From an uncultured Chloroflexia bacterium (GTDB taxonomy: Bacteria; Chloroflexota; Limnocylindria; Limnocylindrales; CSP1-4): 64,000 nucleotides of DNA. Where the stretch lies: assembly GCA_963829155.1 (NCBI GenBank), contig CAWHIA010000018.1, positions 13,804 to 77,803 of the forward strand. Direction: 5' to 3'. The stretch's first letter is position 1. Every line of letters begins with the position of its first letter. Positions 1 through 18,124 of the stretch are shown here, one piece after another. The translations under genes were made by a program, and so were the position numbers. Below the pieces are notes generated by a model that saw only the letters and a program-made list of their open reading frames with translations, had not been told where the DNA came from and ran no database searches.

Positions 1-1030
1 GGGTGATGTCGGCGCGCCACTGCGGCACCCGGGGATGGTTCGGCGAGCCGGTGAACCGGATGTTGACGGTGACCTGGAGCCGATCGGGCAGCAGTCGCCA
101 CGTGAACGCCGCGGGACCGCCCGTGATCGTGCCTTCCGCGCGCTGCTCCCAGTCGAACTGCTCCCGGCCGACATCGACGGGGCCTGACACCGCATCGAGG
201 GCCGTCCAGGTCAGCGGACCCACGACGCCGTCGTCGCCGAGGGGCGGCGTCCTGGAGCGCTGGAACTCCCTGACCGCCTGGCGGGTCTGGCCGCCGAACT
301 TGCCGTCCACCTCGAGCAGGGTCGCGACCTGGTCCGGCGGCACCGTGTTGAGCTTCTGCTGCAGCTCCTCGACCGCCGGGCCCGTGGAGTTGCGGCGGAT
401 CGTCGGATGGATCGTGCCGCCCAGCGGCGCGCCCCGCGGCTCGCCCTCGGCCGGGCCCTCCACGACGCTCCGGCCCTGGCGCGACACCCGCGGCGCGAGC
501 TCGTCGATCTTGGCCCACGTCTCGAGGCCGCAGACCCCGTCGGCCACGAGCGGCGGGTTGGAGGCCTGGAACGAGATCACCGCCGCCGCGGTCATGAGGT
601 CGAACACCGCCGTGATCCGCAGCGGCGGCGTCGCCGCCCCGAGCGCGTTCAGCGCCTGCTGCAGCTGGCCGACCTCCACGCTGGGGCCGTCGCCCTGCCG
701 CAGCACGGTGTGCGTCGGCGCAGCGGGCGCGGCCGGGGCCGCCCCTCCGGGCGCGGCCGGCGCGGCCCCCGGCGCGTCGTCCCGCTGGAGCAGGACCGGC
801 GCGCGCCTGCTGAACAGCGACCCGACGGCGGCGTTGCCGGCGCTCCGCTGGAGCGCCATGACGACCATCGACGACGCGGCGTGCATGGGCAGGCGCCGCG
901 GACCGGCGCCGATCACGGCCAGCTCGGGCGACTCGCCCGGCGCCGCGGCCCGGTCCGTGGCGGCGACCGGGCCGTCCGGCTGTCGCTCCCCGCCCTGGTC
1001 GTTGCTGCGCTGCGTTGCCGTCCCCGCCAT
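1..1030 (-). CDS. Putative CIS cargo/effector, N-terminal part only (gene runs off the left edge): LQRSAGNAAV leader plus two peptidoglycan-binding (PG_binding_1-like) repeats
   Basis: I translated the minus strand from the ATG at 1030-1028. The ORF is absent from the track because it has no stop inside the window. It reads MAGTATQRSN...VVMALQRSAGNAAVGSLF...PVLLQRDD. Two repeats follow: LRQGDGPSVEVGQLQQALNALG...AAAVISFQ, and IRRNSTGPAVEELQQKLN...VDGKFGGQTRQAVREFQRS...GVVGPLTWTAL. Both fit the PG-binding helical repeat. The start lies 5 nt downstream of the DUF4157 gene stop. The third codon position is GC-rich. Confidence 0.7.
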   Translation of the reverse strand, partial: MAGTATQRSNDQGGERQPDGPVAATDRAAAPGESPELAVIGAGPRRLPMHAASSMVVMALQRSAGNAAVGSLFSRRAPVLLQRDDAPGAAPAAPGGAAPAAPAAPTHTVLRQGDGPSVEVGQLQQALNALGAATPPLRITAVFDLMTAAAVISFQASNPPLVADGVCGLETWAKIDELAPRVSRQGRSVVEGPAEGEPRGAPLGGTIHPTIRRNSTGPAVEELQQKLNTVPPDQVATLLEVDGKFGGQTRQAVREFQRSRTPPLGDDGVVGPLTWTALDAVSGPVDVGREQFDWEQRAEGTITGGPAAFTWRLLPDRLQVTVNIRFTGSPNHPRVPQWRADIT

Positions 1031-1034
1031 GCGA

Positions 1035-1742
1035 TCAGGTCCCCGGGACTTCTTCTTCCTCTTCGGGCGTGGCCTCGCGCTGGACGGCGGCCACCGACGC
1101 CGTATCGTCCTCCTCGCGCTGCACCGCCGCGCCGGCGTCCGACGCCGACGGCTGGGCCGAGGAGACGGCCGACATCACCTGGTCGGCGGTCGCGTCCGCG
1201 GCGCGCTCGAACCGGTCGGACGGGTCGCTGACCCGGATGCCGCCCGGCGCGTCCGAGCCGTCCACCGGCCCGCGGGACTGCTGGACGACGTGGCTCAGCT
1301 CGTGCGCGATCGTCCGCTGACCGACCGACGACGCCGGGTCGTACTGGCCGGACTTGAACACGACGTCGGAGCCGACGGTGTAGGCGTTCGCCCCGACAGA
1401 CTCGGCCGACTTCGACGCCCGGTCGTCGGTGTGGACCCGGACGCCTTCGAACGACTGCCCGAAGGCCGACTCCATCGACGTCCGGGTGCCCTCGTCGAGG
1501 GGCGATCCCCCGCCCGACCCGACCACGTCGTGCACCGGCGACGCCTGCTCCTCCTCGCCGGCCAGCATCTGCACCACGCCCGCGTTACCGGCGGTGCGCT
1601 GGAGGTGCATGAGGGTCGCGGCGTCGAGCGCCGGCGAACGGCCGGGGGCGACCGGAGCCTGCTCCCCGGCGGCCGGCACGTGGCCGTCGCGATCGGGCGA
1701 TCGCAGCGCGGCGTGGGACGCGTCCAACTCGAAATCGCGCAT
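1035..1742 (-). CDS. DUF4157-type zincin-like protein (eCIS-associated family)
   Basis: I chose the ATG at 1742 inside ORF 1035..2204 because an AGGAGG lies just upstream on the minus strand. The protein has the leader LMHLQRTAGNAGVV (1575-1604). The DUF4157-like core reads SMESAFGQSFEGVRVHTD...ANAYTVGSDVVF...RTIAHELSHVVQQ, with HELSH at 1290-1304. The tail is acidic and carries two AAVQRE motifs. Confidence 0.85.
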   Translation of the reverse strand: MRDFELDASHAALRSPDRDGHVPAAGEQAPVAPGRSPALDAATLMHLQRTAGNAGVVQMLAGEEEQASPVHDVVGSGGGSPLDEGTRTSMESAFGQSFEGVRVHTDDRASKSAESVGANAYTVGSDVVFKSGQYDPASSVGQRTIAHELSHVVQQSRGPVDGSDAPGGIRVSDPSDRFERAADATADQVMSAVSSAQPSASDAGAAVQREEDDTASVAAVQREATPEEEEEVPGT

Positions 1743-1872
1743 GGCGGTCCTCCTGTTCCACGTGTCAGGATCGGCCACGGCGTCGGCCTCCGCAATGGGC
1801 TCGGACACGACCGCCCGGAAGTCTGCCCCAATGGGCACCGCTGCCGGAGGCGCCCTCGCTAGCATCGGCCGC

Positions 1873-3531
1873 ATGCGAACCCGCGCGGTGCCCGTCCCGG
1901 GGCACCAGGCCGCCGCCGGGCCTGCCGTCGCAGGCCCTCGCCCCGCGCCGGCCGCAGCCCCCGGGACCTCGTCCCTCTCGGCCACGTCGCCCCCCATCGA
2001 GTCCGCGGTCCTCGCCCCGGACGGGCTCGTCGACCTCCAGGCGACCGCCGGCAACCGCGCGACGGTCGAGGCGCTGCAGCGCTCGCCGGCCGCGGGCGCG
2101 GGGCCCGCCCGGCCCACGCCGATCATCGTGCAGCGCGCCGTGTCGGCGGAGCAGGCGACGACCATCGCCCGGCGGCTAGAGGACGCGATGAAGGGCTGGG
2201 GCACCGACGAGGAGGCGATCTACGGAGCGCTCGCCGGCCGGACGGCCGCGGACATGGATGAGATCCGCAAGGCCTACAAGTCCTCCTACAACAAGAACCT
2301 CGACGCGGAGCTGCGCGACGAGCTCAACGACTCGGAGCTGGCCCGGGTCAGCCAGTCGATGGCGCCGACCGCCGACGAATCCAAGCTCACCGAGGCCGAG
2401 CGACTGTCGGCGGCGACGGACCGCGCGAAGGCGGCCGCCGCGCACCTCAAGGAGGCGATGGCCGGCTGGGGGACGGAGGAGGACGAGATCTTCAACGTCC
2501 TCGAGGGTCGCGAGCCCGAGGAGATCCTCGCGATCCAGCGCGAGTACCTCGCTCTCACCGGCAACCACCTGGACCGGGACCTGCAGGACGAGCTGAGCGG
2601 CTCCGACCTGCGGAAGGCGCTCGCGCTGCTCCAGGTGCAGGCCGCGGGCACGTTCACGAACGAGATCGACCAGCACATGACCGAGGGCGAGACGACCACG
2701 GTCCAGGGCCGGTTCGAGTACGTCCTCCAGCAGCGCGAGCTGACGGTCCGCGTGCCGGTGGACTTCAAGCCGGACGCCGGCGTAACCGCGCCGATCGCGA
2801 CCTGGCAGTCGCAGATCGACACGGTCTGGAACCAGTTCGCGGCCGTGGAGAGCGGCGGCCTCAAGGTCCCGATCCGGTTCGGGATCGAGAACCGGGCGGG
2901 CGCCGACAAGTCGATCCGTGTGAAGGACAACAAGGTGCCGGGGACGCAGTCGGTCGAAGACCGGGCGAACGCGGGGATGTGGTTCCCGCTGATGGACGCC
3001 ACCACCGCGCCGCACGAGTTCGGGCACCTCGTCGGCCTCCAGGACGAGTACCAGCGCACGCACGGCGACTACAAGAAGATCACCGGCGAGGACAAGACAG
3101 GCCCCGCCAATGCCTCGGGCAAGACCGCCGCGGAGATCGCGGTCGACCTCCACGCGGCGCTCTACCTCGCCGACGCGACCCAGCGGGCCCCGACGGCCAC
3201 GACGCTGCTGACGACCGTCGGCCTGATCGTCGGCGGGGTCCCGCAGCAGGGCGACTTCGCGCAGGAGGTCCAGAAGGCGTACGACGACAAGTACTCGGGC
3301 TGGTTCAGCAAGTCGCTCGTCCAGGCGATGCGCGACAAGATCCCCGAGGGGAGCAAGTGGACGATCCAGTCGGTGTTCTCGTACGCCAGCCGGAGCATCA
3401 TGGGCAACCCGGAGATCCTGGGCGCCCCGGACCCGCACGACCACGCGGTCGAGCCACGCCACCTCGAGGAGTTCGTGCGCATCGTCCGTCGCGCCTACCC
3501 GGATCTCACCTGGACGGCCGGGTCGCGATGA
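1873..3531 (+). CDS. Putative CIS effector: N-terminal leader, two annexin-type repeats and a HEXXH zinc metallopeptidase domain
   Basis: The ATG at 1873 lies within ORF 1429..3531 and is divergent from the DUF4157 gene. The leader is LVDLQATAGNRATVEALQRS (2035-2067). Two annexin-like repeats span ~2155-2631: ARRLEDAMKGWGTDEEAIYGAL..IRKAYKSSYNKNLDAELRDEL and AAHLKEAMAGWGTEEDEIFNVL..IQREYLALTGNHLDRDLQDELSG. The C-terminal part carries APHEFGHLVGLQDEY, with HEFGH at 3013-3027. Confidence 0.8.
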   Translation: MRTRAVPVPGHQAAAGPAVAGPRPAPAAAPGTSSLSATSPPIESAVLAPDGLVDLQATAGNRATVEALQRSPAAGAGPARPTPIIVQRAVSAEQATTIARRLEDAMKGWGTDEEAIYGALAGRTAADMDEIRKAYKSSYNKNLDAELRDELNDSELARVSQSMAPTADESKLTEAERLSAATDRAKAAAAHLKEAMAGWGTEEDEIFNVLEGREPEEILAIQREYLALTGNHLDRDLQDELSGSDLRKALALLQVQAAGTFTNEIDQHMTEGETTTVQGRFEYVLQQRELTVRVPVDFKPDAGVTAPIATWQSQIDTVWNQFAAVESGGLKVPIRFGIENRAGADKSIRVKDNKVPGTQSVEDRANAGMWFPLMDATTAPHEFGHLVGLQDEYQRTHGDYKKITGEDKTGPANASGKTAAEIAVDLHAALYLADATQRAPTATTLLTTVGLIVGGVPQQGDFAQEVQKAYDDKYSGWFSKSLVQAMRDKIPEGSKWTIQSVFSYASRSIMGNPEILGAPDPHDHAVEPRHLEEFVRIVRRAYPDLTWTAGSR

Positions 3532-4211
3532 CTCTCGTCACGTGGCGGCGCCTGTCGTCGATGCCGCCGCCGGAGCGCGAGATCCTCGAGGTTGAGCCGG
3601 ACGGGTCGTTCCGGCTGTGGCGATCGATCGCGCCGGTCGTCGGGCGGTTCGGCGGGTCGCTCCCGGACGACGCAGCCGCGGATCTCCGCACGCTCGTGGA
3701 GGCCGTCGGGTCGTCGTCGGCGCCGCGCCCGGGCAAGGTGCCTCCCGACGCGAGCGTCGAGCAGCTCGAGATCGCCGGGACGCTGTCCGTGTTCGAGGCC
3801 GATGGGGACGTGGCCGCCCCCTGGGGGGACCTGCTCGCCGCGTGCCGCCGCCTCGCCGATGGGCTCGTGGACCGGCCGCTGGCGGCGATCGCGCTCGAGG
3901 TCGACCTCGCGGACGGTGGTGCGCAGATCCGCCTCGTCCATCGGGGCTCGGGCTCGCTGCCCGTCGAGCTGGCCGCGGCCCGCCTCAAGGTCGCGGTCTG
4001 GCGAGCCATGATCAACGCCGCTAACGCGACGGCGCCGGCCCTCGACCTCGGGCGGGTGGACGCAGGCCCCGGCTGGTCGACGGAGACCGCCGTCGATCTA
4101 CCGGCCCTCGAGCCGGGCGACAAGGTCACGGCCGACGCGCGGTTCATCGCGGACGACGGCGGGGTGTTCATCCCGGTCGCGATGTCGACGACGATCGTCG
4201 TCCCGGGTTGA
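3528..4211 (+). CDS. Hypothetical protein translationally coupled to the annexin-metalloprotease gene (candidate immunity/inhibitor or chaperone)
   Basis: The ATG at 3528 overlaps the upstream stop (ATGA). The product is 227 aa, MTLVTWRRLSSMPPPEREILEVEPDGSF... The third codon position is GC-rich. I recognised no motif. Confidence 0.6.
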   Translation: MTLVTWRRLSSMPPPEREILEVEPDGSFRLWRSIAPVVGRFGGSLPDDAAADLRTLVEAVGSSSAPRPGKVPPDASVEQLEIAGTLSVFEADGDVAAPWGDLLAACRRLADGLVDRPLAAIALEVDLADGGAQIRLVHRGSGSLPVELAAARLKVAVWRAMINAANATAPALDLGRVDAGPGWSTETAVDLPALEPGDKVTADARFIADDGGVFIPVAMSTTIVVPG

Positions 4212-4230: not shown

Positions 4231-6372
4231 CTAGCCGTTCACCAGGTCGTAGTACTCGCCGAACTCGGCCTCCACCGTCAGTCGCCCGAGCTTGCGGTAC
4301 TCGCGTTCCGTGGCGCGCACGAGGTCGGGCATCGCGACCGGGCGGTCCTCCGCCGCGGCGAGGTACGCGGCCGTCACGCACACGTTCCGGATATTGCCGC
4401 CCGAGATCTTGAACCGGCGGGCGAGGAAGTCGAGGTCGATGTCGTCGGCGACCGGCAGGTCCGGCGCGAGGTTCGCCGCCCACAGCCGGCGACGATGCTC
4501 CTCCTCGGGCATCGGGAAGTCGATGATCGCGTCCAGGCGCCGCACGAAGGCCTCGTCGACGTTCGAGCGCAGGTTGGTCGTCAGGACGGCCAGCCCGTCG
4601 AAGCGCTCCATGCGCTGGAGCAGGTAGGCGACCTCGACGTTGGCGTACCGGTCGCGAGCGTCCTTGACCTCGGACCGCTTGCCGAACAGCGCGTCCGCCT
4701 CGTCGAACAGCAGGATCCCGTTGACCCGGTCGGCCTCCGTGAAGATCCGGTCCAGGTTCTTCTCGGTCTCGCCGATGTACTTGTCGACGACCGTGGACAG
4801 GTCGATCACGTAGACGTCGAGCGCGAGGTCGTGGCCGACGACCTCCGCCGACATCGTCTTGCCGGTCCCCGAGTCGCCGGCGAACAGCGCGGTGACGCCG
4901 ACGCCGCGTGCGCCCTTGGTGCCCATGTGCCACTCGCCGATGACCCGGTCGCGGTGGCGAGCCCGGGCCGTGAGCTCGCGCAGCTGGGCCTCGACCACCG
5001 AGGGGAGCACGAGGTCGTCCCAGCCCACGGTCGGCTCGATCCGGCGCGCGAGCCGCTCGAGACCCGCGGCGTTCTGGGCCCGCGCGCCGCCCGCGACGTC
5101 CGTGATCGTCATCGGACGGTTCTCGGCGGTCGCCGCGTGGCGGGCGGCCCGCGCGGCCCGGTCGATCTGCTCGGGGGTGAGGCGGAACGCGATCGTGGCG
5201 GCGGCCGGGTCGAAGCCCGCCGGCGCGTCCCCGTTGAGCGAGTCGACCCACAGCTGGTGCCGCCGGACGATCGAGGGCACGGGCGCGTCCACGATGAGCG
5301 GCGGCTCGCGCGACCAGGCCGGGTCCCAGTCGCGGCCGCCGACGAGGATCACCGGCCCCGGCTGCTCCGCGAACGCGCGGACCGCGGCCGCGCCGCGCTC
5401 GACCAGCGGCTCCACCGGGCCGACCACCAGGCCGGCGCCGCGCAGCCTCGCCTCGCGCGACGCCGCGGCAGCGAGCAGCACCGGGTCGTCGCCCGCCGAC
5501 AGGCGCCCGAGGTCGAGCGCGATGGCCGGCCGGCCGAGCCGAGCCATCGCCGTCCAGCCGAGCGACCGCCCGGACGCCCCCGGACGCTCGCGCACGTAGA
5601 CCAGCGACTGCCCGGCGGCCAGCCCGCGCGCGACCACCTCGACCTCGTCGACGTCCACCGGGACCGACGAGGCCAGCAGCGCCTCGATGGCGGGGTCGGG
5701 GCTGTCGTCGCCCAGCAGGTGGGCCGCCACCCGGTCGGGCACCCGGAGCGGCCGGGTCAGCGAGGGGCGGTCGACGTCCTCCACCAGGAGCAGGCGTCCG
5801 GCGACCAGCGGCGCGAGCGGGCCGAGCCGTTCGCGGAGCGGCGCGCCGGCGGTGGACGCCGTCACGCCACCGGGTCCCGTCGTCGCCCCGCACAGCTCGA
5901 TCGCCAGCCCGACGCTCGCCCGGCGCCGCGAGACGTCGTCGTGGAGGTAGCCGTAGAGCCGCTCGAACCGGGGGTCGAGGTCGGGGGCGAGCGCGACCAG
6001 CAGCAGGTCGACGTCCACGGGCTCGAGACCGAAGGCCCGCGCGAGGCCCCGCAGGCGGACGTCGCTCCCCGCCCGCTCGGCCTCGTCCGCGCGCGTCTCG
6101 AGCGCATCACGCAGGTGCGCGACCGCCTCATCGGCCTCCGGGGGCACGAGCGGGCCGCCGGGCCGGTCGAGCAGCCCGTCCACCTGCTCGTCGGAGATGT
6201 ACAGGCCGCGGAACCGATCGCCGGGGTCGGCGTCGACGGCGCGCCGCCGGTCCACGGCCGCGCGCACGCGCTGCTCGATCAGCGACAGCCGGCCCAGGAG
6301 GTACAGGAGGGACGGGTCCGACGGGCCGAGCGCGTGCTCCGCGTCCGCGCCGGGCGGAGCGGCGCCCGTCAT
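4231..6372 (-). CDS. CIS-associated AAA+ ATPase (Afp15/Pvc15-like)
   Basis: The ORF is an intact 713 aa. The C-terminal AAA+ module has Walker A GDSGTGKTM, Walker B ILLFDEADALFG, and then YANVEVAYLLQRME...TTNLRSNVDEAFVRR. A long N-terminal non-ATPase region precedes it. The gene is adjacent to the DUF4255 gene, as in other CIS loci. Confidence 0.9.
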   Translation of the reverse strand: MTGAAPPGADAEHALGPSDPSLLYLLGRLSLIEQRVRAAVDRRRAVDADPGDRFRGLYISDEQVDGLLDRPGGPLVPPEADEAVAHLRDALETRADEAERAGSDVRLRGLARAFGLEPVDVDLLLVALAPDLDPRFERLYGYLHDDVSRRRASVGLAIELCGATTGPGGVTASTAGAPLRERLGPLAPLVAGRLLLVEDVDRPSLTRPLRVPDRVAAHLLGDDSPDPAIEALLASSVPVDVDEVEVVARGLAAGQSLVYVRERPGASGRSLGWTAMARLGRPAIALDLGRLSAGDDPVLLAAAASREARLRGAGLVVGPVEPLVERGAAAVRAFAEQPGPVILVGGRDWDPAWSREPPLIVDAPVPSIVRRHQLWVDSLNGDAPAGFDPAAATIAFRLTPEQIDRAARAARHAATAENRPMTITDVAGGARAQNAAGLERLARRIEPTVGWDDLVLPSVVEAQLRELTARARHRDRVIGEWHMGTKGARGVGVTALFAGDSGTGKTMSAEVVGHDLALDVYVIDLSTVVDKYIGETEKNLDRIFTEADRVNGILLFDEADALFGKRSEVKDARDRYANVEVAYLLQRMERFDGLAVLTTNLRSNVDEAFVRRLDAIIDFPMPEEEHRRRLWAANLAPDLPVADDIDLDFLARRFKISGGNIRNVCVTAAYLAAAEDRPVAMPDLVRATEREYRKLGRLTVEAEFGEYYDLVNG

Positions 6373-6426: not shown

Positions 6427-7206
6427 TCACCGGCGGGGCGGACGACGGACGCCGCTCACGCGGATGCGCACGCCCCCGTCCTTGGCGCCCGCGTTGGCCG
6501 GCAGCAGCTCGGTCGTCGAGGCGTCGAGCTCGATCGCCGGTCCCGCGGCGCCACCCGGGCTCTTGCGGGACTCGCTGGCGCCGCCGGTGGACGAGATCCC
6601 GATCGACGGCCCCTCCTGGACCGGCGGCCCGATGTAGGCGCTGGAGTCGACGACGATCGGCGCCGTGACGACGAGGTCGAGCGAGGGCTTGAGCTCGCCG
6701 CCCAGCGCCGACCAGATGTCCGCGAGGGACCGCTCCTGGCTGGCCGGCTGGCCGACCTCGATGTACACGGGCAGGTCGGCCTCGTTGAGCGGGGCATCGA
6801 GGTCTTCGGCCTTGATGAACGGGTTGCGGAGGAAGCAGGCGAGCAGCGACGACAGCAGCCGGTGCTCGTCCTCGGGACGCTGCGTCCACGCCGTCACCAG
6901 GTAGGCGAGCCGGAACCGCCGCGGGGGCTGGTGGCGCCGGGTCACGGTCCCGTTGGCATCCCGGACGTCCTCCCAGGCGGGCACGCGCCGCTGGAGGTCC
7001 TCGCGGATGTCGTACAGGTACAGGTCGACCGCGGGCCCGCTCCGCCTGGCGACCCAGTCCTTCGTGGGCGCCTCGAACACGAGGTCGACGGACGACCCGT
7101 TGAGCGCGTCGCGCTTGACCAGCTTCTCGAGCAGCTGATCGACGTCGTGGATCACCCGCCGATCGTCGGCCCGCGCGGCGTCCCACGCCAGCCGGTCGCG
7201 GGGCAT
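6427..7206 (-). CDS. DUF4255 protein (Afp16/Pvc16-like tail terminator/cap)
   Basis: ORF 6427..7338 reads ...VIHDVDQLLEKLVKR...VDLVFEAPTKDWV...VDLYLYDIRED...FRLAYLVTAWT..EDEHRLLS, which is typical of DUF4255. The start is uncertain: the ATG at 7206 or the GTG at 7155 (VIHDVDQLL). The gene is divergent from the sheath operon. Confidence 0.8.
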   Translation of the reverse strand: MPRDRLAWDAARADDRRVIHDVDQLLEKLVKRDALNGSSVDLVFEAPTKDWVARRSGPAVDLYLYDIREDLQRRVPAWEDVRDANGTVTRRHQPPRRFRLAYLVTAWTQRPEDEHRLLSSLLACFLRNPFIKAEDLDAPLNEADLPVYIEVGQPASQERSLADIWSALGGELKPSLDLVVTAPIVVDSSAYIGPPVQEGPSIGISSTGGASESRKSPGGAAGPAIELDASTTELLPANAGAKDGGVRIRVSGVRRPPRR

Positions 7207-11903: not shown

Positions 11904-12389
11904 ATGGGCGATCCGGCAGTCAGCATCGCGTACAAGTGCACGATCGACGGCTTCATCCCGCTCGGGATCTGGACCAAGATCGAGGGCCTGGGCTTCGAGT
12001 ACGAGATCAAGGAGTTCCGCGAGGGCGGCATCAACGGCTTCACCCACAAGGTCCTCGGCCCCTGCAAGTACACGAACCTGCGGCTCAGCCGGCCGGTCGA
12101 CTCGACGTCCGAGCTCCTGATGCTCTGGCTCCAGAGCAACATGATCAAGGTCATCCCGCAGACGATGTCGATCACGGCGATGACCATGAACGGCGACGAG
12201 ATCACGACCTGGAACCTCGCCGGCGTGATCCCCGTGAAGTGGACCGGCCCCTCGCTCGACATCATGAGCAACAACGTCGCCACCGAGACGCTCGAGGTCA
12301 CCTACCAGGAGATCATCGGGCTCGGCGCGCTGGGCGGGCTGCTGGCGGGCGCGATGTCCGTCTCGGCCAACGTGAGCGTCGGGTTCTGA
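11904..12389 (+). CDS. Second tube-like protein (Afp5-type tube initiator)
   Basis: The 161 aa product reads ...CTIDGFIPLGIWTKIEGLGFEYEIKEFREGGINGFTHKVLGPCKYTNLRLSRPV...WNLAGVIPVKWTGPSLD, a gp19-like tube fold signature. Confidence 0.85.
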   Translation: MGDPAVSIAYKCTIDGFIPLGIWTKIEGLGFEYEIKEFREGGINGFTHKVLGPCKYTNLRLSRPVDSTSELLMLWLQSNMIKVIPQTMSITAMTMNGDEITTWNLAGVIPVKWTGPSLDIMSNNVATETLEVTYQEIIGLGALGGLLAGAMSVSANVSVGF

Positions 12390-12399: not shown

Positions 12400-13137
12400 A
12401 TGGTGATGGACGCGGTCGGCGGGGCCGTATCGGCGGTCGCCGGGGCGCTCGGGCTGATCAAGTCCGACAAGGCGAAGCTCGTGTGCGTGGGCAGCAACAT
12501 GCCCGACGGCCCGCACGAGATCGAGTGCGCGTTCAACCCGACCGACTACACGCTGACCCAGACCGTCAGCGTCCCCGCGACGACGTCCCCCGCCAAGGAG
12601 GGCGGCCAGCAGCAGTACAGCGGCACCGGGGCGCTCACGTTCTCGACCAACCTGTTCTTCGACGCGTTCTCGGAGGCCAAGGGCGACGTCACGCCCAAGA
12701 TCACCACGCTGCTCAGCTGGATGAAGCCCACCAACAAGTCGAGCTCGAACGGGCGGCACTCGCCGCCGCTCGTCCAGTTCAAGTGGGGCGGCAACCCGCA
12801 GCTGGATCAGCTGAAGGGGTTCATCACCAGCTCGACGGTCAAGTACACGCTGTTCCGGATCGACGGCACGCCCGTCCGGGCCGAGGTCGCGATCACGATC
12901 ACCAGCCAGGCCGACCCCGAGACGGGCCAGAACCCGACCTCGCAGGCCACCAACAGCCGGCGCGTCCACCAGGTGATCGACGGCGACACGCTGCAGTCGG
13001 TCGCCTACCGGGAGCTCGGCAAGCCGCAGTACTGGCGCGCGATCGCCGAGCTCAACGCCATCGACGACCCGATGCGCCTGTCCCCGGGGTCGGTCCTCCT
13101 GATCCCCAGCGTCGCCGACGCGACGAAGAGCGCCTGA
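12400..13137 (+). CDS. LysM-domain baseplate hub protein (Afp7/Pvc7-like)
   Basis: The 245 aa product has a tube-like N-terminal part (ECAFNPTDYTLTQ...PPLVQFKWGG). Its C-terminus carries LysM: HQVIDGDTLQSVAYRELGKPQYWRAIAELNAIDDPMRLSPGSVLLIP. Confidence 0.85.
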   Translation: MVMDAVGGAVSAVAGALGLIKSDKAKLVCVGSNMPDGPHEIECAFNPTDYTLTQTVSVPATTSPAKEGGQQQYSGTGALTFSTNLFFDAFSEAKGDVTPKITTLLSWMKPTNKSSSNGRHSPPLVQFKWGGNPQLDQLKGFITSSTVKYTLFRIDGTPVRAEVAITITSQADPETGQNPTSQATNSRRVHQVIDGDTLQSVAYRELGKPQYWRAIAELNAIDDPMRLSPGSVLLIPSVADATKSA

Positions 13138-13143: not shown

Positions 13144-14814
13144 ATGCCGGACCCGAGCGTCGCCATCCAGCGCGAGATCGAGATCGACGGCAGCAGGCTG
13201 CCCGACAACGTGCTCATCCACCTCGAGAGCACGACGGTCATCGACCGGCTCTCGATGCCCGACACGTTCACGCTGGTGTTCCGCGACCCGGACCGCAACA
13301 TCCTGAGCACGGCCCGGATCCAGGTCGGCACCAAGGTCGTGATCTCGACGACGTCGACGCGCGAGGACGCCCCGAAGGTCCTGATCGACGCCGAGGTCAC
13401 CTCGATCGAGACCGAGTACGGCGCGCACGGCACGCTCGCGGTCGTCCGCGGCTACGACCGGTCGCACCGCCTTGCGGCGGGCCGCAAGTCGAAGACCTTC
13501 CTCAACGCGAAGTACTCGGACATCGCGACCCAGCTGGCCAGCGCCGCCGGGCTCACGCCCGACGTCGACGAGTCCGAGGGCACCCACGACCACGTGTTCC
13601 AGGCCAACCAGTCCGACCTCGACTTCCTGTCCGGCCTGGCGCGCCAGATCGGCTACGACTGCCGGGTGGACGGCGAGAACCTGCTGTTCAAGAAGCCCGT
13701 CGAGTCGTCGTCCGGACCCGCCGAGGGCGAGGCGCTGGGCACCAATCCGACCGCCCTCGTCTGGGGCGACGACCTGCTCGACTTCCGCGCCCGCATGAGC
13801 GCCGTGGCGCAGGTCAGCAAGGTCGAGGTCCGGGGCTGGGACCCGGCGACAGAAGAAGGAGATCATCGGGACCGCCCAGGCGACGGCGAACAACGCCGAC
13901 ATGCCCATGAAGCCGGCGGATCTCGCCGAGAAGGTCGGCGGCCAGACGCACGTCGTCGTCGATCGAGGCGTCGGCTCGCAGCAGGTCGCGGACCAGATGG
14001 CGCACGCCGCCTCCGCGGCCATCGGCTCGGCGGCGTTCGAGGCCACGGCCATCACCACGGGCTCGCCCGACCTCAAGGCCGGCGTCGCGGTGAGCGTCGG
14101 CGGCGTCGACCCGGCCCTGGCCGGCAAGTGGGTGATCTCGGGTTCCCGCCACGAGTTCGGCGACGGGTTCTATCGGACGTCGCTGGAGTTCGCCGGCCGC
14201 CAGGACCGGTCCGTCCACGGGCTGCTGGGCCAGGGCGGCGGCGCCGCCAACGACCGGATCTACGGCCTCGTGATCGGGATCGTGACCGACAACAACGACC
14301 CCGACAACATCGGGCGGGTCAAGGTCAAGTTCCCGTGGCTGGGCGACGACGTCGAGTCGTGGTGGGCGCGGATCGCCGCGCCGGGCGCCGGGCCGGACTA
14401 CGGCATCGTCTGGGTGCCGCAGGTCAACGACGAGGTCCTGGTCGGGCTTCCTGCACGGCGACGTGCGCATGCCCGTACGTGCTCGGCGGGCTGTGGAACG
14501 GCGTGGACCCGATCCCGTTCGACACGAGCGCGAACCTCGACGCCGGCTCCGTGACCTTCTGCGGGTTCAAGTCGCGGACGGGCCACCAGATCAACTTCTG
14601 GGAGAGCGGCGACGACTCATCGATCCAGCTGCTGACCAAGGGCGGCGCGATCGAGATCACGCTCGACGAGCTGAACTCCGAGCTGAAGATCACGGTCAAG
14701 GGCAAGGTCACGTTCCAGGCCGACGGCGACGTCGAGATCAAGGCCGGGGGCTCGATGAAGCTCGAGGCCACCGGGCAGATGACGGTCAAGGGCGCGACCG
14801 TCGCGATCAACTAG
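13144..14814 (+). pseudogene. VgrG / phage gpD-like spike protein (Afp8-like), three +1 frame breaks
   Basis: The N-terminal part MPDPSVAIQREIEIDGSRLP...VEVRGWDPAT runs in the ORF 13144 frame. The text continues as KKEIIGTAQ...GDGFYRTSLEF...IGIVTDNNDPDNIGRVKVKFPWLGDD..WARIAAPGAG..GIVWVPQVNDEVLVG in the ORF 13901 frame. After a short FLHGDVRMP stretch it returns to the first frame: YVLGGLWNGVDPIPF...KGATVAIN. The extra bases lie near 13852, 14447 and 14475. Confidence 0.85.
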
Positions 14815-14827: not shown

Positions 14828-15229
14828 ATGGCACAGCCGCTCGTCATGGGCGACAAGATCCAGGGGCAGTGCGCGATCCACCAGATCCCGAACCCGGCGT
14901 CCGGTGCGCCGCAGCCCTCGCCGCCGATGCCGTTCTCGGCGCCGCTGCTGACCGGCCTCGAGCCGACCGTGACCATCGGCGGCAAGGCCGTCGCGGTGCT
15001 CGGGTCCTCGGGCTACAACACGCCGCCCCACGTGGGCCTGCATCCGACCGACCCGTTCATGGTCCCGACGACGCAGCAGGGCATGGTGATCAGCGGCAGC
15101 CCGACGGTCACGGCCGGCGGCAAGCCGATCGCGACGTCGAGCTCGCAGGTGGCGATGTGCGCCCAGGTGCCCGGCCAGCCGATGGCGACGGTCACGCGAC
15201 GTGACGGTCGCGTGAGGAGGCGGGCGTGA
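14828..15229 (+). CDS. PAAR-like spike-tip protein
   Basis: The 133 aa product reads MAQPLVMGDKIQGQC...TVTIGGKAVAVLGS...GMVISGSPTVTAGGKPIA. This PAAR-type pattern sits directly after the spike gene. Its stop overlaps the next start (GTGA). Confidence 0.8.
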   Translation: MAQPLVMGDKIQGQCAIHQIPNPASGAPQPSPPMPFSAPLLTGLEPTVTIGGKAVAVLGSSGYNTPPHVGLHPTDPFMVPTTQQGMVISGSPTVTAGGKPIATSSSQVAMCAQVPGQPMATVTRRDGRVRRRA

Positions 15230-15624
15230 GCGACGAGTTCATCGGCCGCGGCTGGGCGTTCCCGCTGCGCACCGACCCCACGGGCGGGATCGCGCTCGTC
15301 GCGCGCGAGCGCGAGATCGAGGAGGCGATCCGGCTGGTGCTCGGGACCTCGCCCGGCGAGCGCCCGATGCGGCCCGAGTTCGGCTGCCGGATCCACGACT
15401 ACGTGTTCGCGTCGGCCGACGGCGCGACGGCGTCGGCGATCGCGGCCGAGGTCCGCGAGGCGATCCGGCGCTGGGAGCCGCGGGTCGACGTCGAGGACGT
15501 CCAGGTCTCGTTCGACGCCCGTGACGCCGCCGTCATGTACATCGACATCAAGTACGCCATCCGGCGGACCAACGACCGCCGCAACCTCGTGTTCCCGTTC
15601 TACGTGATCCCGGGAGGAGACTGA
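15226..15624 (+). CDS. GPW/gp25-family baseplate wedge protein
   Basis: MSDEFIGRGWAFPLRTDPTGGIALV..EREIEEAIRLVLGTSPGERPMRPEFGCRIHDYVF is a textbook gp25 signature. An AGGAGG lies upstream of GTG 15226. Confidence 0.9.
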   Translation: MSDEFIGRGWAFPLRTDPTGGIALVAREREIEEAIRLVLGTSPGERPMRPEFGCRIHDYVFASADGATASAIAAEVREAIRRWEPRVDVEDVQVSFDARDAAVMYIDIKYAIRRTNDRRNLVFPFYVIPGGD

Positions 15625-15626
15625 TC

Positions 15627-17573
15627 ATGGCCCTGCCGGTCCCCAACCTCGACGACCGCCGCTTCCAGGACCTCGTGGACGACGCCAAGCGGCTCGTCCA
15701 GCAGCGCTGCCCGGAGTGGTCGGACCACAACGTCTCCGACCCGGGCGTGACGCTGATCGAGCTGTTCGCGTGGATGACCGACCAGGTCGTCTACCGCCTC
15801 AACCGCGTGCCGGACCGCAACTACGTCAAGTTCCTCGAGCTCATCGGGGTCAGCCTCTATCCGCCGACGGCCGCGCGCAGCCCGATGACGTTCTGGCTGT
15901 CGGCCCCGCAGCCGGACGTCGTCACGATCTCCGCCGCGACCCAGGTGGCCACGGTCCGCACCGACACCGACGAGGCGATCGCGTTCACGACGATCGAGGA
16001 CCTGCCGATCATCCCGTCCGAGCTGGCCGCCCTGGGCTCGATGATCGACGGCAAGACGCTGCGCGACCACATGGCCGCCCTCGAGAAGGGCACCGAGGTC
16101 TACTGCTTCCAGAAGGTGCCGTCCGCGGGCGACGCGCTGTACATCGGCCTGTCCGAGGCGGTCCCGTCGAACGCGGTCCGGCTGCGGTTCAAGGCCGACA
16201 TCGATGGCGTCGGCGTCGACCCGACCAACCCGCCGCTGGCCTGGGAGGCCTGGACCGGCGACGACTGGGAGCCGTGCGAGCTCGACTCCGACTCCACCGG
16301 CGGGCTCAACCGCGACGGCGACGTGGTGATCCACGTGCCGCACGGCCACGTGGTGTCGCTGATCGCGAAGCAGCGGGCCGGCTGGCTGCGGGCGCGGGTG
16401 ACGGATCTCGCCGAGGGCCAGCCCGCCTACTCGGCCTCGCCCAACATCAAGGGCCTCGAGGCGATCACGATCGGCGGCACCGTCGACGTGGTCAACGCCG
16501 AGCTCGTCACCGACGAGGAGATCGGGATCTCCGAGGGCGTCCCGGGGCAGCGGTTCCTGCTCAAGCGTGGGCCGGTGGTGCCCGGGGACGACGACCCCGT
16601 GCTCGAGGTGGCCGGCGACGAGGGCTGGGACGAGTGGACCTACGTGCCCGACTTCGCCGCCAGCGGCCCCGACGACAAGCACTTCACGATCGACCTGTCG
16701 ACGGGCGAGGTCCGGCTCGGGCCGGCGGTCCGCCTGGCCGACGGCGCGCTGCGACGCTACGGCGCGGTGCCCGTGAAGGGCGCCCATCTCCGGCTGGCCC
16801 AGTACCGGACCGGCGGCGGCCGCAAGGGCAACGTCTCGGCGCGCGCGATCAGCGTGCTCAAGTCGTCGATCCCGTTCGTGTCGCGCGTCGAGAACCGGCG
16901 TCCGGCCCGGGGCGGCGTCGACGGCGAGGACATCGAGAACGCCAAGATCCGGGGTCCGATCCGGCTGCGCGCCCGCGGCCGAGCGGTGACCACCGAGGAC
17001 TACGAGCAGCTCGCCCGCGAGGCCGCGCCCGAGGTCGCCCGCGTGCGGGCCGTGGCGGCCGGCGACGGCACCGACGCCGGGTCGGTCCGGGTCCTGATCG
17101 TGCCGTCGGCGGTGTCCGAGCTCGGGCGGCTGCGGTTCGACCAGCTCGTCCCCAACCCCGACACGCTCCAGAAGATCACCGACCGGCTCGAGGAGAGCCG
17201 GGTCATCGGCACCCGCGCGATCGTCGAGCCGCCCGTGTACCGCGGGATCACGGTGGTCGCGAAGCTCAAGGCGCGCTCGCGCATCAACCCGACCCGGCTC
17301 CAGGAGGAGGCGCTGCTCGCGCTGTACGAGTACTTCCACCCGATCACCGGCGGCCCCGACGGGACCGGCTGGCCGTTCGGCCGCCCGGTGAACGCGGGCG
17401 AGATCTACTCGGTCCTGCAGGGGATCCGCGGGACCGAGATGGTCGAGGACGCACGCCTGTTCGGGGCGGACCCGGTGACGGGCCAGCGCGGCCAGCAGAC
17501 CCAGCGCCTCGAGCTCGAGACCCACGCGCTCGTGTTCAGCTACGAGCACCAGGTCCTGGTCGAGGGCGCGTGA
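15627..17573 (+). CDS. Baseplate J-like protein (gp6/Afp11-like)
   Basis: The 648 aa product reads MALPVPNLDDRRFQDLVDDAKRLVQQRCPEWSDHNVSDPGVTLIELFAWMTDQVVYRLNRVPDRNY..., the conserved N-terminus of putative baseplate assembly proteins. Confidence 0.9.
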   Translation: MALPVPNLDDRRFQDLVDDAKRLVQQRCPEWSDHNVSDPGVTLIELFAWMTDQVVYRLNRVPDRNYVKFLELIGVSLYPPTAARSPMTFWLSAPQPDVVTISAATQVATVRTDTDEAIAFTTIEDLPIIPSELAALGSMIDGKTLRDHMAALEKGTEVYCFQKVPSAGDALYIGLSEAVPSNAVRLRFKADIDGVGVDPTNPPLAWEAWTGDDWEPCELDSDSTGGLNRDGDVVIHVPHGHVVSLIAKQRAGWLRARVTDLAEGQPAYSASPNIKGLEAITIGGTVDVVNAELVTDEEIGISEGVPGQRFLLKRGPVVPGDDDPVLEVAGDEGWDEWTYVPDFAASGPDDKHFTIDLSTGEVRLGPAVRLADGALRRYGAVPVKGAHLRLAQYRTGGGRKGNVSARAISVLKSSIPFVSRVENRRPARGGVDGEDIENAKIRGPIRLRARGRAVTTEDYEQLAREAAPEVARVRAVAAGDGTDAGSVRVLIVPSAVSELGRLRFDQLVPNPDTLQKITDRLEESRVIGTRAIVEPPVYRGITVVAKLKARSRINPTRLQEEALLALYEYFHPITGGPDGTGWPFGRPVNAGEIYSVLQGIRGTEMVEDARLFGADPVTGQRGQQTQRLELETHALVFSYEHQVLVEGA

Positions 17574-18124
17574 TGCGCGGCTACATCCCGGGGCTCGAGA
17601 CGCCCCACCCGCTCGGGCCGGCGCTCCCGGCCCTGTACCAGGACGACGACTTCGTCCAGCGGATGCTCGACGGGCTCGACGCGGTCGTGGCGCCGGTGTT
17701 CACCACGATCGACAACTTCGACTCGTACCTCGACCCCAGCCTCACGCCCGACGACTTCCTCGCCTGGCTCGCCGGCTGGGTGGGGATCGCGCTGGACGAG
17801 GGCTGGGACGAGGCCCGCCGCCGGGCGATCGTCGCGCGTGCCGTGGAGCTGTACCGGCTCCGGGGGACGGCGGCTGGGCTGGCCGGCCAGGTCGAGATCC
17901 AGACCGGCGGGACGGTCGAGATCGTCGAGAACGGGGCAACCGGGTGGTCCGTGGACCCGGGCGGCGAGCTGCCGGGGTCGGCCGACCCGCTCGTCGTCGT
18001 GCGGGTGACCGTGCCCGACCCGAAGGCGATCGACGCCCAGCAGCTGGACACGCTCGTCGCCACGGCCAAGCCGGCCCACGTGATGCACCGGATCGAGATC
18101 GTCAAGGGCGCCGCGAAGGCTTGA
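17573..18124 (+). CDS. Phage tail protein I-like baseplate protein (Afp12-like)
   Basis: The ATG at 17573 overlaps the upstream stop (TGATG). The protein reads MRGYIPGLETPHPLGPALPALYQDDDFVQRMLDGLD...LAWLAGWVGIALDEGWDEARRRAIVARAVELYRLRGT, which is P2 gpI-like. Confidence 0.85.
   Translation: MRGYIPGLETPHPLGPALPALYQDDDFVQRMLDGLDAVVAPVFTTIDNFDSYLDPSLTPDDFLAWLAGWVGIALDEGWDEARRRAIVARAVELYRLRGTAAGLAGQVEIQTGGTVEIVENGATGWSVDPGGELPGSADPLVVVRVTVPDPKAIDAQQLDTLVATAKPAHVMHRIEIVKGAAKA

Follow-up and report, generated by a model that had tools for sequence, protein, structure and literature searches.

Fibre-less contractile injection systems (CIS) of the Streptomyces type, including their membrane protein CisA, are already known, and the absence of a fibre is a recognised hallmark of this subtype, hence expected of its members. 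Type IId CIS have also been described outside Actinomycetota, in Chloroflexota (Roseiflexus, Thermogemmatispora and Deinococcota are the cases reported; ISME J 2026, PMC12998442), where free cytoplasmic particles were seen and a Streptomyces-like action was presumed (PMC12998442). What is new here is a member from the uncultured soil Chloroflexota, a phylum different from that of Streptomyces. The stretch of DNA that was analysed (64,000 nucleotides, termed ‘the window’ below) probably holds a complete, chromosome-borne type IId CIS, orthologous to the cytoplasmic CIS of S. coelicolor and S. venezuelae and likely to share their intracellular mode of action, a reading to which we assign, from sequence comparisons, a probability of about 0.72. 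The intracellular mode itself is proposed for this organism by homology.

An initial annotation of the same DNA had named a complete core set of CIS families, and a profile-HMM search with Pfam retrieved all of them, each at its place and above the curated cut-offs. On the minus strand lie an Afp15/Cis15-type AAA+ ATPase with an N-terminal winged-helix domain (4231..6372; Pfam WHD 1.5e-26, AAA 4.7e-22) and the cap or tail terminator Cis16, a DUF4255 protein (6427..7206; Pfam Pvc16_N 7e-40; Cis16 chain of PDB 9gts, E 2e-56). The remaining structural genes run along the plus strand, beginning with the contractile sheath Cis2 (7341..8843; Pfam Phage_sheath_1 and _1C), which matches the S. coelicolor entry 8bky with an E-value of 3e-199 and 8bl4 with 2e-196, and whose identity to the sheaths of Streptomyces and Kitasatospora is 58-64%. 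The two gp19-like tube paralogs described earlier are indeed present, as the inner tube Cis1a (8886..9320; Pfam Phage_T4_gp19 7e-23) and a second paralog or tube initiator, Cis1b (11904..12389; Phage_T4_gp19 3e-24). Between them are encoded a 144-aa protein similar to tail assembly chaperones (9325..9759; phrog_508, E 5e-6), whose slot is also filled in Kitasatospora and Streptomyces clusters; a 52-aa DUF6760 protein (9756..9914; Pfam 2e-12), annotated at the same place in a Kitasatospora plasmid; and a Pro/Ala-rich protein of about 650 aa in the tape-measure position (9911..11891, delimited by a GC3 frame plot; 547-656 aa in relatives), for which the single frame scanned (the 9993 frame) gave no Pfam match. 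The gene at 9325-9759 was also considered as a tube paralog and was rejected on account of its resemblance to the chaperone family.

Downstream follow the LysM hub or tube initiator Cis7 (12400..13137; Pfam CIS_tube 3e-25 plus LysM; LysM chain of PDB 9gtp, E 3e-30), the VgrG-like spike Cis8 (13144..14814; Pfam Phage_GPD in one frame and the Phage_base_V OB domain in another), the PAAR tip Cis10 (14828..15229; Pfam PAAR_motif 1e-7), the gp25-like wedge protein Cis9 (15226..15624; Pfam GPW_gp25 9e-28; 9gtp chain, E 4.5e-47), baseplate J, Cis11 (15627..17573; Pfam Baseplate_J 1e-16; Cis11 of 9gtp, E 5e-237, full length), and the 183-aa gpI-like wedge protein Cis12 (17573..18124; Pfam Tail_P2_I 7e-16; NCBIfam TIGR02242 6.5e-33; 9gtp chain, E 1e-39). 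In a search of PDB sequences, the structural proteins were best matched, over their full length, by chains of the S. coelicolor cryoEM structures (‘CIS-Sc’). Their order (cap, ATPase, sheath, two tubes, chaperone-like protein, DUF6760, tape-measure-position protein, LysM hub, VgrG, PAAR, gp25, baseplate J, Cis12) recurs in the clusters of Streptomyces, Kitasatospora and Actinoplanes. The proposal that the locus is kin to the fibre-less CIS of actinomycetes, with a cargo set of its own, is thereby supported by the CIS-Sc matches, by gene order and by the homologue found at the cisA position.

That homologue (18485..21177, plus strand) occupies the place in which a fibre gene would be sought. 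The initial annotation correctly placed a zinc-ribbon membrane protein there and no fibre; the protein does not, however, simply stand ‘instead’ of one, but belongs to a family that already has a name. If continuous, it is a CisA-family membrane adaptor of about 897 aa (Pfam, NCBIfam and PDB profiles, hhalign), with an N-terminal zinc ribbon (18485-18565; Pfam Zn_Ribbon_1), a disordered linker of (Glu-Pro)n repeats (array at 18637-19669, identified with TRF), a second zinc ribbon (about 20370-20430; Zn_Ribbon_1), a transmembrane helix (20599-20655, from hydropathy) and a C-terminal discoidin or NADase-type glycan-binding domain (about 20780-21140; NCBIfam NADase_discoid 1e-14, above the cut-off, with PDB profile matches to F5/8 type C domains). 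Comparison by hhalign with proteins at the Streptomyces cisA position gave 99.8% and an E-value of 5e-30, the comparison proteins being from Streptomyces sp. NBC_00250 and other Streptomycetaceae at the same position rather than the SCO4242 sequence itself, and an HMM of the family matches the ORFs behind cis12 in four actinobacterial loci (Kitasatospora, Streptomyces, Actinoplanes and Thermoleophilaceae). In a direct BLASTP comparison with P0198 the zinc ribbon alone aligns; for the C-terminal domain, the putative homology is supported by profile matches.

The same three-domain architecture has been published for Sco4242/CisA (PMC10020575, text and Suppl. Data 7; PMC12237407). The likeness to that protein (Casu et al. 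2025, eLife; Vladimirov et al. 2023) extends to a gene directly behind the baseplate wedge genes, an N-terminal zinc ribbon with a mostly disordered cytoplasmic part, a Cys-rich zinc-binding segment right ahead of a single transmembrane helix, an F5/8 type C (discoidin) domain of some 150 aa at the C-terminus, and profile homology to the Streptomyces proteins in this position. In contrast, the window protein is about twice as long (about 897 versus 468 aa), because of its EP-repeat linker, which occurs in most Limnocylindria-like loci and is missing from the Dormibacterota and Actinomycetota homologues inspected, and its identity to Streptomyces members lies below the reach of BLASTP except in the zinc ribbon. 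By these profiles and its transmembrane helix, the product of the fibre-position gene is a CisA-family bitopic membrane protein.

Behind it, on the minus strand (21371..24431), is encoded a large regulator with an N-terminal AAA_16/AAA_22 ATPase and C-terminal Trans_reg_C and BTAD domains (Pfam; SARP type), and three related loci (L008-L010) as well as an Actinoplanes locus (L084) also have a BTAD regulator in this place. Both the cisA-like gene and the regulator are parts of the system, so that the extent first given for it, 1-18124, was too small: it reaches to about 24431 and, on the other side, past the left edge of the window, where the cargo genes of positions 1-4211 include one cut by that edge. 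The machine is thus flanked by a SARP-type regulator and by three proteins with an N-terminal LQRxAGN motif.

The relationship to actinomycetes holds for the machine, but its host most likely lies outside the actinomycetes: the nearest relatives point to a high-GC, Limnocylindria-like soil bacterium of the Chloroflexota. The closest loci (80-98% amino acid identity) come from soil MAGs labelled Chloroflexia, Limnocylindrales or Chloroflexota, one of them on a 2.69-Mb contig, and the similarity extends beyond the CIS; baseplate J is at most 56-58% identical to its actinomycete homologues (56% in Streptacidiphilus, Streptomycetaceae).

The first of the three tagged proteins (1..1030, minus strand) is represented by its N-terminal 343 aa, with the tag LQRSAGN and two PG_binding_1 repeats (Pfam E 4e-25); in relatives it measures 600 aa and ends in the same HEFGHxxGLxDEY domain as the third, and its full-length homologue in the related locus L002 is 30% identical to the third over the protease-like domain (E 2e-22). 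The second (1035..1742, minus strand), a cargo or accessory protein of 235 aa tagged LQRTAGN, is an eCIS_core (DUF4157, HExxH) protein (Pfam E 7e-32). The third (1873..3531, plus strand) joins the tag LQATAGN to two annexin repeats (Pfam E 1e-26) and a metzincin-like C-terminal domain of about 300 aa with an invariant HEFGHxxGLxDEY and a Met-Gly; it has 46 homologues in all among 5.8e9 clusters, and its AF2 model (pLDDT 86) found no fold counterpart in the PDB. Three copies of the LQRxAGN motif lie in the window, all at the edge of the CIS, and 27 in 1.55 Mb of related loci, bordering CIS genes in every inspected locus that has one, Actinoplanes included; by this association the tagged proteins are the predicted cargo of the system.

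In two cargo proteins, a peptidoglycan-binding or an annexin (membrane-binding) module is fused to a common, unannotated metzincin-like or zinc-protease-like domain, an architecture that would fit an envelope-directed action. The third cargo gene is translationally coupled (ATGA overlap, 3528-3531) to that of a 227-aa partner (3528..4211, plus strand), which gave no match in Pfam, NCBIfam or PHROG and is homologous to a gene adjoining the PG_binding cargo of the locus L094 (29% identity, E 1e-9). This protein could be an inhibitor, an immunity protein or a chaperone, and the coupled partner of each metzincin-like cargo probably keeps the cargo inactive or aids its loading.

The mechanism proposed for this machine is carried over, across a phylum boundary, from work in Streptomyces (Casu 2023, Vladimirov 2023, Casu 2025). 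Particles would assemble free in the cytoplasm and be loaded with tagged cargo; under stress, CisA, with its zinc ribbons and linker in the cytoplasm and its discoidin domain outside, would bring the baseplate to the cytoplasmic membrane; this recruitment would lead to sheath contraction, the cargo would reach the envelope, and the cell would lyse. The role of the system would then be regulated cell death or development, not attack by released particles.

The same machine might instead be an intercellular weapon, whose particles or envelope-delivered cargo strike neighbouring strains or other organisms and whose partner proteins confer immunity. The effector/partner cassette differs between near-identical strains: the third cargo is 48%, and its partner 40%, identical in amino acids to the L002 counterparts, in machines that share 95-97% of their nucleotides, and yet a strain less closely related (P0121, L006/L085 contig) has the same cargo domain with 84% identity, which shows cassette exchange of the kind known from polymorphic toxin loci. 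Divergence this sharp is commoner for inter-strain weapons than for self-lysis devices, and it counts against the main reading. The partner genes are moreover conserved, translationally coupled and co-varying with the effector; Sco4242 was initially proposed as a fibre (Vladimirov 2023); and DUF4157 and BTAD are domains associated with eCIS in general (PMC8213781). However, a partner serving as inhibitor or chaperone would suit a self-lysis device equally, the Pfam scans and the PHROG scan of nine ORFs turned up no fibre gene, and the protein in its place belongs to a family whose S. coelicolor member is embedded in the membrane of the producing cell itself and required for firing in situ (PMC12237407). 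Type IId particles in Streptomyces and Roseiflexus have, in addition, been observed solely inside cells. On balance, use as a weapon appears unlikely, though it deserves some weight, and the intracellular reading is preferred.

A smaller chance attaches to the idea that the CIS is decaying and non-functional, its frameshifts being real mutations; if they were, the spike would be broken and the system dead. The indels number at least three in VgrG, one in PAAR, at least two in the tape-measure-position gene and at least one in cisA (near 19650). Those in VgrG are +1 insertions at about 13851, 14444 and 14472, the first lying outside any homopolymer, and the intact 554-aa VgrG of the more distant L006 aligns to the window as three HSPs in frames 1/2/1. 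In PAAR, a 1-nt insertion near the 3' end (evident against L004, L009 and L010) puts the last 10 or so codons out of frame. The plus-strand genes had been described as chained by overlapping stop and start codons; the sequence does contain GTGA at 9756 and 9911 as well as TGATG at 17571-17575, but the GTGA at 15226 exists because of this insertion, the PAAR stop of relatives lying 10 nt ahead of the gp25 start. Against decay, the three VgrG insertions total +3, the codon-position GC bias is still 0.95-0.99 in the shifted segments, the short-read contig L012 stays in one frame across the first VgrG break, and sister contigs of the same ENA assembly series carry private indels, each at differing sites. 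Unrelated housekeeping genes in the window (an AP_endonuc_2 TIM barrel and a FAD_binding_3 FAD monooxygenase) are split as well, as is the regulator (over two frames, near 23450), and because such genes are affected too, indel errors of a long-read assembly are the most likely source of the frameshifts in VgrG, PAAR, cisA and the tape-measure-position gene.

The earlier judgement that the locus is not a prophage stands: Pfam scans of positions 1-64000 found no capsid, portal, terminase or integrase families, nor were head or packaging families found to the right of the system in the window or in the ORFs scanned to the left of the cargo in relatives, and nine ORFs scanned (seven of them lacking a clear Pfam assignment) gave no PHROG tail-fibre match. 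A prophage tail module or R-pyocin-like tailocin, with head or lysis genes to the left of a window that does begin inside a gene, is hardly credible, given that the Afp15-type ATPase, DUF4255 cap, DUF4157 and CisA are eCIS markers and not phage genes (PMC8213781), that relatives carry to the left of the cargo a partner gene, LuxR regulator, malic enzyme, DUF2330 and M14 carboxypeptidase or, in another case, a further annexin cargo, and that phage records align with 34% of baseplate J at most (best matches 26-31% identical).

Among known systems, those of S. coelicolor (CIS-Sc, sco4242-4260) and S. venezuelae (CIS-Sv) are closest. The structural gene set and order are identical, with divergent cap/ATPase and sheath operons, two tube paralogs, PAAR (as in S. 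venezuelae), neither a fibre nor a typical Afp14 tape-measure protein, and cisA immediately behind cis12; the nearest chains are 9gtp, 9gts, 8bky and 8bl4 of CIS-Sc. The differences lie in the host (Actinomycetota there, most likely Limnocylindria-like Chloroflexota here), in the (Glu-Pro)n array of about 1 kb that forms the CisA linker here, and in the cargo: the S. coelicolor effectors Sco4256-4258 carry a transmembrane segment and a ricin domain, whereas the cargo recognised here consists of LQRxAGN-tagged peptidoglycan-binding or annexin modules with a metzincin-like domain and of a small DUF4157 protein.

The Tme-type CIS of Streptomyces davawensis (Nagakubo 2024) and the Kitasatospora plasmid cluster likewise run from sheath and tube through a small ORF, DUF6760 and a large ORF to the baseplate genes, with a CisA-family protein at the end of the Kitasatospora cluster. 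Their tape-measure-position ORF, however, bears an N-terminal DUF4157 (and, in S. davawensis, a nuclease), whereas here DUF4157 resides in the separate 235-aa protein and the large ORF is without a Pfam match in the 9993 frame, the one scanned. Roseiflexus is reported to have no close cisA homologue (PMC12998442), in contrast to the present clade, and is absent from the best 80 loci of a baseplate J scan that seeds on peptide patterns of the query, so that divergent homologues may escape, and that ends at actinomycete loci of 43-58% identity; for these two reasons the present clade may be closer to actinomycete systems than Roseiflexus is. Finally, Afp, PVC and AlgoCIS share the common core (sheath, tube, LysM hub, VgrG, PAAR, gp25, baseplate J, gpI-like protein, DUF4255 cap and AAA+ ATPase), but have an Afp13-type fibre behind the wedge genes, an Afp14 tape measure and released particles, and their sheaths match that of the window with about 110-165 bits, compared with 667 bits for CIS-Sc.

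Because the GC content of the window is about 72%, lists of raw open reading frames were uninformative, and genes were called from GC content at the third codon position. The layout obtained begins with two minus-strand genes (1-1030, truncated at the window edge, and 1035-1742), followed by two plus-strand genes coupled through an ATGA overlap (1873-3531 and 3528-4211), two further minus-strand genes (4231-6372 and 6427-7206) and an unbroken plus-strand series from 7341 to 18124; past a gap of about 360 nt the plus series resumes with the cisA-like gene (18485-21177), and a large minus-strand gene, encoding a regulator, occupies 21371-24431. Every core family named in the initial annotation was recovered above the Pfam gathering thresholds: the sheath, two gp19 tube genes (8886-9320 and 11904-12389, both on the plus strand), CIS_tube with LysM, Phage_GPD, PAAR, GPW_gp25, Baseplate_J, Tail_P2_I, Pvc16_N (DUF4255) and the ATPase (WHD and AAA). 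Directly 3' of the first tube gene lies a tail-assembly-chaperone-like gene (9325-9759, plus strand, matching phrog_508), which is followed on the same strand by a DUF6760 gene (Pfam) and then, at the tape-measure position, by a Pro/Ala-rich gene of about 650 codons. A tblastn search with proteins from the tape-measure position, run with the low-complexity filter off, returned hundreds of spurious Pro/Ala-rich matches and was discarded; the ‘intact’ ORF of a close relative (L001) itself includes out-of-frame stretches. The overlapping stop and start codons described earlier are present in the sequence as GTGA at 9756 and 9911 and as TGATG at 17571-17575; the remaining one, a GTGA at 15226, did not stand, because it is an artefact of a 1-nt insertion close to the end of the PAAR gene.

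The concatenated structural proteins were searched against all PDB sequences, and the cryoEM chains of CIS-Sc (the cytoplasmic type IId system of S. coelicolor) proved to be the top matches by a wide margin, together with those of its S. venezuelae equivalent, CIS-Sv. The best chain for Cis11 (baseplate J) was 9gtp, matched over its full length (E 5e-237), and the same entry was best for Cis9 (gp25; E 4.5e-47), Cis12 (E 1e-39) and Cis7 (the LysM hub; E 3e-30); the sheath matched 8bky best (E 3e-199) and also 8bl4 of S. venezuelae (E 2e-196), and Cis16 (the cap) matched 9gts (E 2e-56). In contrast, the scores of Afp, PVC, AlgoCIS and the cyanobacterial tCIS were about four times lower than those of CIS-Sc. 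Over 99% of its length the sheath aligns with those encoded on Streptomyces and Kitasatospora megaplasmids, at 58-64% identity, and the gene order is that of a Streptomyces locus (L096), a Kitasatospora plasmid (L097) and an Actinoplanes locus (L084), with the cap and ATPase genes divergent from the sheath operon. Read from these PDB matches, the sheath identity and the gene order, the locus appears to be a type IId CIS in the sense of Casu 2023 and Vladimirov 2023, while a reference phylogeny is what formally defines the subtype. The Kitasatospora plasmid (Kitasatospora sp. NBC_00070, NZ_CP108248.1) itself carries a cluster of the Tme type, in which a DUF4157 protein of 1243 aa occupies the tape-measure position and no AAA+ ATPase is annotated beside the cap gene.

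Several genes of the cluster are broken across reading frames, and real decay of the locus is one reading of such breaks, to which a small probability is given. The OB and GPD domains of VgrG fall in different frames (Pfam), the intact VgrG of a related locus (L006) aligns to the window in three pieces in frames 1/2/1, and three +1 insertions can be placed at about 13851, 14444 and 14472; both the tape-measure-position gene and cisA also switch frame. Breaks of the same kind lie outside the CIS machine, in the AAA/SARP regulator (at about 23450), in a gene for an AP_endonuc_2 TIM barrel (at about 36250-36290) and in a FAD_binding_3 monooxygenase gene (59590-61315). Taken together they amount to about one indel per 5 kb, inside and outside the CIS, a rate suggestive of an incompletely polished long-read assembly. 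Gene calls in the closest contigs (93-97% nucleotide identity; ENA assemblies ERZ250395xx) are fragmented, with indels placed differently in each, and a short-read contig (L012) is continuous through the first VgrG break. A majority consensus of L001-L011 was dropped as a clean VgrG reference because these relatives are full of private indels, and the short-read contig and the intact L006 VgrG were used in its place. The frameshifts are probably long-read assembly errors, and the locus intact.

That the cluster is instead the tail module of a prophage or tailocin is a very unlikely reading, since neither the Pfam scans, nor the PHROG scan of nine ORFs, nor the ORFs scanned in the left flanks of relatives yielded genes for fibres, heads or lysis. 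As had been claimed from the sequence, capsid, portal, terminase and integrase families are absent from the window (Pfam), and also from the ORFs scanned to the left of the cargo genes in related loci. Among 50,697 phage records, none covers more than 34% of baseplate J, and the best phage matches are 26-31% identical. Pfam also recovered the Afp15-type AAA+ ATPase (WHD and AAA), the Afp16/DUF4255 cap (Pvc16_N) and DUF4157 (eCIS_core), all of them eCIS markers without phage counterparts (PMC8213781). The left flank of the cluster was read from three relatives. Beyond the PG-binding effector, L094 carries a partner gene, a LuxR regulator, malic enzyme, DUF2330 and an M14 carboxypeptidase, and L095 has a further annexin effector there; L006 likewise has a LuxR regulator at its left end. 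Phage genes were found in none of the three flanks. The rightmost 40 kb of the window encode ordinary chromosomal families by Pfam (among them PPDK, SulP, MFS, a sugar ABC transporter, an enolase-superfamily enzyme, SDR, an aminotransferase, a class II aminoacyl-tRNA synthetase and TetR), and Rfam returned no match anywhere in the window at gathering thresholds.

A few other genes on this side deserve mention. Just past the CIS regulator, 24547-26139 (minus strand) encodes a protein of 531 aa in which two zinc ribbons (DUF7577/Zn_Ribbon_1) precede PD40 beta-propeller repeats, and a PD40 protein (5886-7172) adjoins the cargo genes in L095. A 552-aa ORF with good codon bias (26046-27701, plus strand) has no Pfam or NCBIfam match and a marginal PHROG match to a Zot-like toxin (E 0.003). 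Two minus-strand genes (33580-35301 and 53197-55503) encode membrane-transporter-like proteins with C-terminal cyclic-nucleotide-binding domains, one of them an MFS_1 and cNMP_binding fusion.

The missing tail fibre, which was the most striking point of the initial annotation, was borne out (no PHROG match to an Afp13-type fibre in nine ORFs, seven of them without a clear Pfam assignment, and no fibre family in the Pfam scans), and it is already explained in the literature. In S. coelicolor, SCO4242 (CisA) is placed just downstream of the baseplate genes, at the usual fibre site (PMC12237407). That protein is composed of an N-terminal zinc ribbon, a Cys-rich zinc-binding segment right before a strongly predicted transmembrane helix, and, at its C-terminus, a domain of some 150 residues for which HHpred gave matches to F5/8 type C, APC10 and muskelin (PMC10020575, text and Supplementary Data 7). 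The cisA-like gene of the window begins 361 nt past the stop codon of cis12, downstream of cis11 and cis12. It encodes one Zn_Ribbon_1 at its first residues (18485) and a second at about 20370 (Pfam), followed by a transmembrane helix that is the most hydrophobic 19-mer of the window (20599-20655) and by a C-terminal domain that passes the NCBIfam cut-off for an NADase-type glycan-binding (discoidin; NADase_discoid) domain. The profile of this last domain matches F5/8 type C domains, CBM32s and APC10/DOC1 in the PDB, and the zinc ribbon matches L40e; F5/8 type C, APC10 and L40e are the same families as those in Vladimirov's HHpred table for Sco4242.

More than 50 related loci have the same succession of zinc ribbon, transmembrane helix and discoidin domain downstream of baseplate J, and these were aligned as A1. 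The Streptomyces locus L096 has a protein at the same position after cis12, and an Actinoplanes homologue was used as a bridge to proteins 411-489 aa long in Streptomyces and Kitasatospora, among them P0198, which in a Streptomyces cluster comes directly after Tail_P2_I and baseplate J. An alignment of these Streptomycetaceae proteins (A4), one of them verified at the cisA position, stands in for SCO4242 itself; hhalign of A1 against A4 gave 99.8% probability (E 5e-30) over 225 columns spanning the zinc ribbon, the transmembrane helix and the C-terminal domain. A plain BLASTP alignment of the window protein with P0198 was limited to the zinc ribbon. An HMM built from A1 matched the post-cis12 ORF at full length in each of four loci (L096, L097, L080 and L090), with E-values of 2e-69 in Kitasatospora (L097, where the protein, annotated as hypothetical, is 662 aa long and ends the cluster at 26835-29027), 3e-46 in Thermoleophilaceae, 1e-34 in Actinoplanes and 1e-22 in Streptomyces (L096). 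Judged from sequence, then, the gene at the fibre position is a member of the CisA family, the link running through Streptomycetaceae proteins at the cisA position. Together with the CIS-Sc chains as best PDB matches and the shared gene order, it supports the view taken at the outset that the locus is a relative of the fibre-less CIS of actinomycetes. The need for CisA in sheath contraction and cell death, with its N-terminus inside and its C-terminus outside, has been shown only in S. coelicolor (PMC12237407).

The window protein also contains a (Glu-Pro)n linker, encoded by a 1-kb tandem array (18637-19669) of 166 GAGCCC units with a 36-nt superperiod repeated 27 times; an alternative frame of the array encodes (Ser-Pro)n, and the ORF in the window alternates between the two. 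Most Limnocylindria-like loci, that of a short-read MAG (L018) among them, have linkers rich in Glu-Pro that differ widely in length (98-255 dipeptides), whereas the Dormibacterota and Actinomycetota homologues inspected are without one; the linker is a lineage-specific feature. The gap between cis12 and cisA holds one copy (18202-18364) of a dispersed intergenic element of about 170 nt, a second copy of which (35408-35580) lies between the MFS-cNMP gene and the AP_endonuc_2 gene. The element contains four 17-bp palindromic boxes (CGTGCGT-N3-ACGCACG) at spacings of 41/64/41 nt, and there are nine matches against 0.48 expected by chance; the boxes of the cis12/cisA gap are kept in nine close relatives (L001-L005, L007, L008, L010 and L011) and not in more distant loci. 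The four boxes upstream of cisA were considered as a CIS-specific operator, an idea rejected because the same element stands at 35.4 kb beside unrelated genes; the element may represent an operator array or be REP/MITE-like.

Across all six frames, the window contains the motif [LM]xLQ[RA][ST]AGN three times, always close to the N-terminus of a protein encoded at the left end of the cluster: one with two PG_binding_1 domains (1-1030), one of 235 aa with DUF4157 (1035-1742) and one with two annexin domains (1873-3531), all assigned by Pfam. Related loci totalling 1.55 Mb contain 27 matches, which flank the CIS genes in every inspected locus that has one, and do so on both sides of the Actinoplanes clusters. 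The PG_binding_1 and annexin proteins end in a common domain, about 300 aa long and 30% identical between them (E 2e-22), in which HEFGHxxGLxDEY is invariant and a Met-Gly conserved; only 46 homologues of it were found among 5.8 billion clusters. Its AF2 model, although confident (pLDDT 86, pTM 0.76), had no Foldseek match in the PDB at E <= 1e-3, and the domain had no sequence match in Pfam, NCBIfam, PHROG or the PDB. We read it as a putative metzincin-like zinc protease from the HExxHxxGxxD...M motif alone, the searches for sequence and fold having given no match.

Behind each of these two effector genes lies a coupled gene for a partner of about 230 aa, and the two partners are homologous. 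The annexin effector and the partner next to it (3528-4211) are 48% and 40% identical to their counterparts in L002, a relative whose machine is 95-97% identical in nucleotide sequence, while the effector domain is 84% identical in amino acid sequence to that of a more distant strain (L006/L085). Correspondingly, positions 1895-4228 have no nucleotide-level match in L001-L005, although the flanking DNA is 95-97% identical, and match L006 at 81%. This low identity to a close relative, combined with high identity to a distant one, indicates that the effector-partner cassette is exchanged between strains by recombination, and exchangeable cassettes of this kind leave room for a role in conflict between strains.

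An actinomycete host, first read from the high GC content, was rejected by a genome scan in which baseplate J was compared with one genome per species (group labels being those of the submitters). Identities were 80-98% in genomes labelled Chloroflexia, Chloroflexota, Ca. Limnocylindrales (an order of Chloroflexota) or ‘Chloroflexi RBG_16_72_14’, about 60-71% in Ca. Dormibacterota, and 56-58% in Actinoplanes, Actinophytocola and Streptacidiphilus, so that the nearest relatives by this protein are soil MAGs, not actinomycetes. The best relative locus lies on a 2.69-Mb contig, and its 87% nucleotide identity persists beyond the CIS. Taken with its more than 50 relatives, the locus suggests that the complete module (the machine, CisA and the SARP regulator) is common in MAGs of uncultured high-GC soil Chloroflexota and Dormibacterota, and firing based on CisA is, on that evidence, probably not special to actinomycetes.

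Type IId CIS are, to our knowledge, the only contractile injection systems that fire inside their own producer, and CisA the only factor that couples them to the membrane, both points having been established in Streptomyces. By homology, the machine would assemble in the cytoplasm, CisA would carry it to the membrane, where firing would follow, and envelope-directed cargo would lyse the producer; the basis for supposing cytoplasmic, non-released particles that fire within the producing cell is the published work on Streptomyces (PMC10066040, PMC12237407).

A more inclusive reading, to which a probability of only about 0.15 is attached, is that a CisA-dependent, fibre-less cytoplasmic CIS is widespread and largely vertically kept in two lineages of uncultured soil bacteria, Limnocylindria (Chloroflexota) and Dormibacterota, and that the Limnocylindria-like clade has re-equipped it in two respects, its CisA rod and its cargo. 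The (Glu-Pro)n segment would form a very long, length-variable, acidic rod, up to about 100 nm if extended, and this rod could serve as a tether in the cytoplasm, catching baseplates and drawing them to the membrane. The cargo may belong to a previously unannotated metzincin-like protease family, aimed at peptidoglycan or membrane by swappable modules, paired with cognate partners and swapped between strains in the manner of polymorphic toxin-immunity cassettes. If the cargo part were true, the ‘suicide’ machine would also serve strain-level conflict or kin discrimination. In any case the locus offers LQRxAGN as a candidate cargo tag, along with a compact and modular family of effectors that have partner proteins; these could aid the engineering of CIS and help to address whether such systems kill only their producer.

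Type IId CIS have already been reported in Roseiflexus (itself of Chloroflexota), Thermogemmatispora and Deinococcota (a 2026 paper, PMC12998442), and Roseiflexus was described there as being without a close cisA homologue, whereas the present clade has a cisA-family gene. The picture of what the system is stays unchanged, while its host range and its catalogue of cargo are widened: in sum, the kind of system is a known one and the host lineage is new.
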